From NCBI RefSeq assembly GCF_003334405.1, contig NZ_QOWM01000004.1: a stretch of 64,000 nt of DNA, one strand, 5' to 3'. Origin of the DNA: Escherichia coli (GTDB lineage Bacteria > Pseudomonadota > Gammaproteobacteria > Enterobacterales > Enterobacteriaceae). Made by a program: the position numbers and the translations under genes. Below are positions 54,847 through 55,145 of this stretch, in pieces (position 1 is the first letter of the stretch; the number at the start of each line of letters is the position of its first letter). Under the pieces are notes generated by a model. The model had not been told where the DNA came from, searched no databases, and saw nothing but the letters and a program-made list of their open reading frames with translations.

Positions 54847-55020
54847 ATGAGTTTTTTTAAAGCTCGTAATTAATGGCTAAAACGAGTAAAGTTCACCGCC
54901 GAAAATTGGGCGGTGAATAACCACGTTTGAAATATTGTGACATATGTTTTGTCAAAATGTGCAACTTCTCCAATGATCTGAAGTTGAAACGTGATAGCCG
55001 TCAAACAAATTGGCACTGAA

Positions 55021-55043
55021 TTATTTTACTCTGTGTAATAAAT
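55021..55043. promoter_or_regulatory. Candidate Mlc operator in ptsG promoter
   Basis: AT-rich pseudo-palindrome tattttactctgtgtaataaata about 100 bp upstream of ptsG ATG; assignment from recalled Mlc regulation, site not verified. Confidence 0.4.
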
Positions 55044-55109
55044 AAAGGGCGCTTAGATGCCCTGTACACGGCGAGGCTCTCCCCCCTTGCCACGCGTGAG
55101 AACGTAAAA

Positions 55110-55145
55110 AAAGCACCCATACTCAGGAGCACTCTCAATTATGTT
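55110..55145 (+). promoter_or_regulatory. ptsG translation initiation region, target of SgrS sRNA pairing
   Basis: aaagcacccatactcaggagcactctcaattATG: SD aggag at 55125-55129; SgrS is known to pair around the ptsG RBS. Confidence 0.6.

Follow-up and report, generated by a model that had tools for sequence, protein, structure and literature searches.

Mlc-type operators and the SgrS pairing site in the established ptsG control region of Escherichia coli

The spacer between ycfH and ptsG in the analyzed stretch of Escherichia coli chromosome (64,000 nucleotides, hereafter the window) almost certainly represents the well-characterised ptsG control region of this organism, which combines transcriptional elements (promoter P1, a CRP site, and sites for the repressor Mlc) with post-transcriptional control by the small RNA SgrS. 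A sequence-only reading of the same DNA had noted an operator-like palindrome and the SgrS target upstream of ptsG. The observation was confirmed and its interpretation is supported by the results presented below; the feature is already known, and the rediscovered sites represent no new biology. Possibly new material is only peripheral and consists of covariation-supported hairpins in the ptsG leader and a constant spacing of two operators. Throughout, binding of Mlc, CRP, and SgrS and the physiological switches that they serve are taken from the literature, while sequence rules, matrix ranks, the RNA duplex, conservation across species, and identity to K-12 derive from this analysis.

The ptsG coding sequence (55141–56574, plus strand; 477 amino acids) was recognized as an open reading frame and is annotated in RefSeq as PTS glucose transporter subunit IIBC. 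With the end of ycfH at 54846 and the start of ptsG at 55141, the spacer covers positions 54847–55140, which agrees with the 294-bp upstream region described earlier. Comparison of 801 bases around the site with E. coli genomes showed 100% identity to the ycfH–ptsG junction, and this 801-base stretch was found in 5,425 of 5,426 complete genomes. The entire 294-bp spacer was identical, base for base, to that of K-12 MG1655. K-12 coordinates were converted to window positions by subtraction of 1,102,728.

Mlc operators have been described as 23-bp quasi-palindromes whose only invariant positions are TT/AA at ±5,6; AT-rich sequence at ±7–11 and, in comparison with high-affinity NagC sites, A/T at ±11 are further characteristics (PMC4288165; PMC1874608). 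The AT-rich quasi-palindrome O1 (TTATTTTACTCTGTGTAATAAAT, 55021–55043, centre at 55032) contained TT at -6/-5, AA at +5/+6, and A or T in all 10 of its 10 arm positions, with T at both -11 and +11. It thereby satisfied all published sequence rules for Mlc operators, in exactly the register given by the sequence-only reading. Applied to other Mlc-regulon genes of K-12, the same rules identified an upstream site with a full score for every one of the four genes examined (manX, ptsH, malT, and mlc). Matches to the pattern WWWWWTT-N9-AAWWWWW occurred three times in the 64 kb, against an expected 0.49, and three matches were reached in 6 of 100 shuffled sequences. Two of these three matches were O1 and a further site, O2, which lie in the same spacer with their centres 169 bp apart.

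A palindromised Mlc matrix, crude in that it was built from four sites only (the manX, ptsH, malT, and mlc operators, with the ptsG sites left out), was used to scan the approximately 64,000 positions of the window. O2 (54852–54874) ranked first with 19.4 bits and O1 ranked third with 15.8 bits. Composition-preserving block shuffles gave a mean maximum of 13.9 bits; sites scoring at least as high as O1 occurred 0.23 times per window, and none reached the score of O2. Sequence rules and matrix rank thus bore out the earlier description of 55021–55043 as an AT-rich pseudo-palindrome resembling an operator of the Mlc/NagC type, for which a matrix scan had been proposed as a check.

The second operator, O2 (TTTTTTTAAAGCTCGTAATTAAT, centre at 54863, -175 from P1), begins six bases past the ycfH stop codon. 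It obeyed the TT-N9-AA rule, had A or T at 10 of 10 arm positions and at ±11, and outscored O1 as the top matrix match in the window; its assignment is based on rule, matrix, and conservation. The O2 sequence gave no match in a full-text literature search. Plumbridge and Kimata, both in 1998, reportedly observed binding and footprints of Mlc at two sites at ptsG, and O2 is probably one of these. The earlier picture of the region was incomplete rather than wrong: both the O1 palindrome and the SgrS site had been located correctly, and the annotation was accurate to the base, but O2 and the CRP box discussed below had been overlooked and an established operator had been labelled a "candidate".

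Mlc footprinting on O1 has been reported, and a published gel-shift oligonucleotide that contains O1 is named the ptsG Mlc-binding site. Expression of ptsG-lacZ is repressed by Mlc and serves as a standard Mlc reporter (PMC4288165). In one ChIP-qPCR study of MG1655, no significant enrichment of Mlc or Fis was found at the ptsG promoter under the conditions of that study (PMC8846999). The sequence features reported here support O1 as an Mlc operator, with actual Mlc binding and repression taken from the literature.

Two other places in the window attracted attention in these scans. The second-ranking matrix match (21256–21278, ATATTTTTCAGGCCGAAAATCAT, 17.0 bits) was located within the grxB coding sequence, in its 5' part, and was judged to be probably a chance match. 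The third full match to the Mlc rule (58882–58904, TTATATTTAGTGTGCGAATAATT) lies in AT-rich promoter DNA, approximately 60 bp upstream of the minus-strand fhuE open reading frame; its score of 12.6 bits was below the mean maximum of the shuffled sequences and this match, too, is probably due to chance.

Conservation was investigated in a scan of species-representative genomes that yielded 80 ptsG loci, ranging from Escherichia to Yersinia, Serratia, Pectobacterium, Dickeya, Erwinia, and Hafnia; counts refer to 78 loci, including that of the window. O1 was present in 77 of the 78 loci, the exception being the reduced-genome symbiont Serratia symbiotica, and O2 in 68. In 73 of the 78 loci, the block comprising the SgrS core and Shine-Dalgarno sequence (ACTCAGGAG) was positioned at -18 to -20. 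In a column profile, the O1, O2, CRP, and SgrS/Shine-Dalgarno blocks stood out against a poorly conserved stretch at 54918–54985. Within the operators, the arms were kept across species while the central 9 bp varied, and this combination of fixed arms and a free centre is the pattern expected of a dimer-binding site.

Two species deviated from the general arrangement. In Serratia symbiotica (locus L071), in which O1 was lost, the SgrS core reads UUGCUCAGGAG. Acerihabitans arboris (locus L060) kept O1 and had neither the SgrS core nor the C-rich loop of the leader hairpin SL2. These species are possible natural cases of loss of regulation.

The distance between O1 and O2 was 166–170 bp, or approximately 16 helical turns, in 65 of the 68 loci that contained O2, and about 70 bp of the intervening DNA, including the poorly conserved stretch, showed no sequence conservation. 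The interval between O1 and the ptsG start codon, on the other hand, ranged from 95 to 136 bp and reached up to 232 bp in loci with insertions. The constant operator spacing points to a constraint on helical phase, perhaps through looping by the repressor, and suggests that a single Mlc tetramer may connect O1 and O2 across looped DNA.

Between O2 and the CRP site, positions 54891–54917 can form a strong hairpin (GTTCACCGCC-gaaaatt-GGGCGGTGAA) that lacks a T-run on the plus strand and is moderately conserved. The fold of 54840–54935, which includes this hairpin, had a z-score of -5.5. This may be where the ycfH transcript ends, or the hairpin may be tied to the upstream promoter P2.

The first nucleotide of the ptsG RNA is numbered -103 in the study that mapped its pairing with SgrS (PMC3089445). 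From this numbering, we infer that transcription from P1 starts at 55038 (plus strand), which corresponds to a leader of 103 nt. With +1 at this position, the published segments A82–G89 and G76–A78 read ATACTCAG and GCA, respectively, in agreement with the study, while its footprint label "C92" lands on a G, a discrepancy of one base. On the same literature-based numbering, O1 spans -17 to +6 and covers the promoter of a sugar-transport gene. A sigma-70 scan did not detect P1; it returned a single promoter-like site at 54949–54977, in the poorly conserved stretch, at about the rate expected by chance. Two minus-strand "terminators" obtained in a consensus scan were rejected as artefacts. One of them, at 55109–55136, is antisense to the SgrS pairing site and hence resembles the 3' region of SgrS.

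A CRP-type box (CGTGA-N6-TCAAA, 54990–55005) has its centre at 54997.5, or -40.5 relative to P1, which corresponds to a class II position. It differs from TGTGA-N6-TCACA at two positions, and the motif was not above chance (16 matches with at most two mismatches, against 26.7 expected). Since the consensus match was not above chance, assignment of this CRP site rests on conservation and literature: 75 of 77 loci carried GTGA-N6-TCA at an unchanging distance from O1, with columns that were invariant or nearly so, and ptsG is known to be activated by cAMP-CRP (PMC4393010; PMC8846999).

The 103-nt leader was predicted to fold into three hairpins, followed by a run of A residues and the SgrS site. 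SL1 (AGGGCG-CUUAGA-UGCCCU, 55046–55063, plus strand) was present in the minimum-free-energy fold and was recovered by RNAalifold with compensatory pairs. SL2 (GGCGAGG-CUCUCCCC-CCUUGCC, 55070–55091, plus strand) combined a conserved, C-rich loop with compensatory changes in its stem, and SL3 (GCGU-GAGA-ACGU, 55094–55105, plus strand) is a short hairpin taken from the fold. Support for these structures was analyzed in a plain alignment of 20 Enterobacteriaceae to which the structure was supplied by hand (A3) and in 77 distinct sequences aligned with a covariance model (A4). In A3, 94.7% of cells paired, as compared to 35–49% in slid controls, and double-sided changes occurred in 9 of 16 pairs. 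The corresponding values in A4, an alignment that leans towards the structure, were 95.3% of cells and 15 of 16 pairs. For SL1, double-sided changes were found in three of six pairs in A3 and in six of six in the model-fitted A4; for SL2, compensatory changes were found in six of seven and, in the model-fitted A4, seven of seven pairs. Three pairs of SL3 were 95–98% paired across species with few double-sided changes, so that support for this hairpin was weaker than for SL1 and SL2. RNAalifold analysis of a plain MAFFT alignment, in which SL2 was misaligned, recovered SL1 only.

The hairpin loops were also conserved. AGA was found in the SL1 loop of 53 of 64 distinct leaders, with CUNAGA as the motif kept. 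SL2 showed 37 distinct 5' arm sequences, yet its loop contained CUCC(CC) in 58 of 64 distinct leaders (motif YUCUCCCC). Because stems were kept by compensatory changes while loop motifs were near-invariant, an extra RNA element in the leader is suggested. No family for the leader was found in Rfam at either gathering or permissive thresholds, no description of the leader hairpins was found in searchable sources, and a paper on 3'-end mapping does not mention ptsG. That SL1 and SL2 constitute an additional, undescribed cis-regulatory RNA element is a tentative reading that we consider rather improbable, as is the related one in which an Mlc tetramer connects the two operators through a DNA loop. 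If such an element exists, a protein or a G-rich small RNA could dock at the C-rich loop of SL2, or this loop could act as an anti-Shine-Dalgarno or Rho-loading element and thereby adjust the translation or stability of ptsG.

Some ptsG leaders (loci L002, at 1376–1498, L003, L014, L017, L026, and L044) carried a structured insertion of approximately 80–125 nt between SL3 and the A-run with the SgrS site. Hosts of the insertion included Citrobacter werkmanii, Citrobacter youngae, and Pseudocitrobacter, and both the hairpins and the SgrS site were preserved in the resulting leaders of 182–226 nt. In Citrobacter, the insert is a dispersed repeat that presumably resembles ERIC/IRU; E. coli genomes have a median of 10 copies each, at approximately 74–90% identity. 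Gathering-level Rfam matches elsewhere in the window were an rne 5' UTR element (41664–42000, minus strand), the small RNAs SraB (43861–44029, plus strand), ES056 (523–614, minus strand), and ES036 (10709–10751, minus strand), and a PyrC leader (19880–19929, minus strand).

Pairing of the ptsG leader with SgrS was predicted by evaluating the SgrS sequence of K-12 against the leader (-103 to +60) in all local duplexes of 24 nt by 24 nt, with opening costs calculated from constrained partition functions. The best local duplex was located at 55113–55132 on the plus strand, where mRNA nt 76–95 pair with SgrS nt 168–187 in helices of 5, 8, and 4 bp with an energy of -27.8 kcal/mol. After the costs of opening the mRNA (+4.7 kcal/mol) and SgrS (+4.9 kcal/mol), a net energy of -17.9 kcal/mol remained. 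The 8-bp core seed (ATACTCAG, 55119–55126, mRNA A82–G89) is the exact reverse complement of SgrS nt 174–181 (C174–U181), and its opening costs were low (1.9 and 0.3 kcal/mol). In this duplex, C85 (55122) pairs with G178 and C87 (55124) with G176. The last base of the core is the first G of the Shine-Dalgarno sequence GGAG (55126–55129), which was read from the sequence 11 nt before the ATG at 55141 and whose columns were invariant across species; the duplex thus overlaps the ribosome-binding site. The claim that the ribosome-binding region at 55110–55145 is the SgrS target was supported: the proposed pairing prediction placed the best local duplex there, and published footprints agree.

Consistent with this prediction, a 5-8-4 pattern has been published for the SgrS–ptsG duplex, together with a conserved SgrS pairing region with a 13-mer consensus, CUGAGUAuUGGUG, at nt 174–186 (PMC2760817). 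Lead-acetate footprints cover mRNA A82–G89 and SgrS C174–U181, G176 and G178 are critical for pairing, and compensatory mutants have been described (PMC3089445). Regulation of ptsG by SgrS in vivo and its dependence on Hfq are likewise known from the literature (PMC3089445; bioRxiv 10.1101/221978), and ptsG is the SgrS target of highest priority, with a KD of 0.11 µM (bioRxiv 10.1101/221978).

Hybridisation energy did not single out this site. A scan of both strands of the window found about four other places with energies of -27.8 kcal/mol or lower. Two of these were examined: one is antisense to an open reading frame, and the second is found across from two overlapping open reading frames, on the other strand, approximately 90 nt upstream of a 127-aa minus-strand open reading frame. 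Moreover, the 8-mer ATACTCAG is expected by chance about twice per window. Because the energy was not unique, the SgrS site was assigned by its position, its accessibility, and its conservation, together with published experiments. Within the leader, the runner-up duplex, formed by the 3' side of SL2 with SgrS nt 7–15 (9 nt of complementarity, -25.3 kcal/mol), was rejected, as opening costs of 11.1 and 13.3 kcal/mol, together approximately 24 kcal/mol, left -0.9 kcal/mol, and a 9-mer match had a chance probability of approximately 0.14. An unrestricted RNAduplex calculation for whole leader and whole SgrS gave a meaningless full-length duplex of -76 kcal/mol, and windowed duplexes were used instead.

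A run of seven A residues (55106–55112, plus strand) lies directly upstream of the SgrS site and was conserved as an A-rich segment in the alignments. Its length varies within E. coli, with seven A residues in the window and in K-12 and six in strain SCPM-O-B-8794 (locus L068). Hfq binds ptsG mRNA at a site that was left unmapped in the report of this binding (bioRxiv 10.1101/221978). We infer that the A-run may be a site for the distal face of Hfq (A-R-N).

The palindrome at O1 could, in principle, be an operator for NagC, the repressor of the N-acetylglucosamine regulon, rather than for Mlc. The two proteins are paralogous and their sites are nearly indistinguishable: the logos have been called "essentially indistinguishable", with TT/AA at ±5,6 as sole invariants, and overproduced NagC can repress Mlc targets (PMC4288165). 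However, the T residues at -11 and +11 of O1 are the Mlc signature, whereas high-affinity NagC sites have C/G at these positions, and no cross-regulation occurs at physiological protein levels in work that used ptsG-lacZ as the standard reporter for Mlc (PMC4288165). Furthermore, A/T was kept at ±11 in O1 variants from 77 species. Deletion of mlc is reported to abolish repression of ptsG-lacZ, and deletion of nagC to leave it unchanged. Taken together, these observations make a NagC operator highly improbable, and O1 is preferably read as an Mlc operator.

Equally improbable is an explanation by chance and shared constraint, in which the palindrome is merely AT-rich promoter sequence at the -10 region and start point, and the block at the ribosome-binding site is conserved for ribosome binding instead of for a small RNA. 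As O1 overlaps the -10 region and start point of P1, promoter function would indeed conserve this sequence too and could account for part of its conservation; similarly, GGAG is an ordinary Shine-Dalgarno sequence, and neither the abundance of the seed 8-mer nor the duplex energy sets the SgrS site apart. Such an explanation nevertheless leaves aside a second site of the same type, O2, which lies away from P1 at a constant spacing and is better conserved still. In addition, O1 varies in the manner of a dimeric operator, with arms and TT/AA fixed and its centre free, and a published Mlc probe includes it. At the ribosome-binding site, conservation extends to 7 nt on the 5' side of the Shine-Dalgarno sequence (UACUCAG) and to GCAC further upstream, which match the invariant SgrS 13-mer, and pairing is backed by published footprints and compensatory mutants (PMC3089445). 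An Mlc operator overlapping P1 and an SgrS site overlapping the Shine-Dalgarno sequence therefore remain the preferred assignments.

On these assignments, regulation of ptsG would proceed as follows. The major promoter P1, starting at 55038, would depend on cAMP-CRP bound at the class II site (54990–55005). Mlc bound to O1 would cover the -10 region and start point and thereby exclude RNA polymerase, and the second Mlc operator at 54852–54874, 169 bp upstream, would be part of this transcriptional control. During glucose transport, dephosphorylated PtsG (EIICB-Glc) would hold Mlc at the membrane so that repression is lifted, as described for the sequestration of Mlc by PtsG that is dephosphorylated during transport of glucose (PMC1874608; PMC4393010). 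Under glucose-phosphate stress, Hfq-dependent SgrS would pair with leader nt 76–95 (55113–55132), and the duplex over the Shine-Dalgarno GGAG would block ribosome binding. Pairing with SgrS and the block in translation are followed by degradation of the duplex by RNase E (PMC3089445; bioRxiv 10.1101/221978).

Control of ptsG sets the rate of glucose uptake in E. coli and is a model case for both membrane sequestration of a repressor (Mlc) and silencing at the ribosome-binding site by an Hfq-dependent small RNA (SgrS). Should the leader hairpins or the operator spacing prove functional, they would add a further level of control to a system in wide use for metabolic engineering.

Comparison with known systems placed the region analyzed here at the same locus as the ptsG P1/P2 region of E. 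coli K-12, with its Mlc operators and class II CRP site (Plumbridge, 1998; Kimata, 1998), with zero differences. The predicted RNA pairing is the same 5-8-4 duplex as in the known SgrS–ptsG mRNA system (Vanderpool and Gottesman, 2004; Kawamoto, 2006; Horler and Vanderpool, 2009; Rice and Vanderpool, 2011), with the same core, overlap with the Shine-Dalgarno sequence, and conservation in enteric bacteria; nothing differed except the one-base offset of the "C92" label. A further parallel is offered by the nagE-nagB region, which, like ptsG, has two operators for a ROK-family repressor in one control region. At nagE-nagB, NagC binds cooperatively via DNA looping (PMC4288165), whereas at ptsG only a constant operator spacing was observed.
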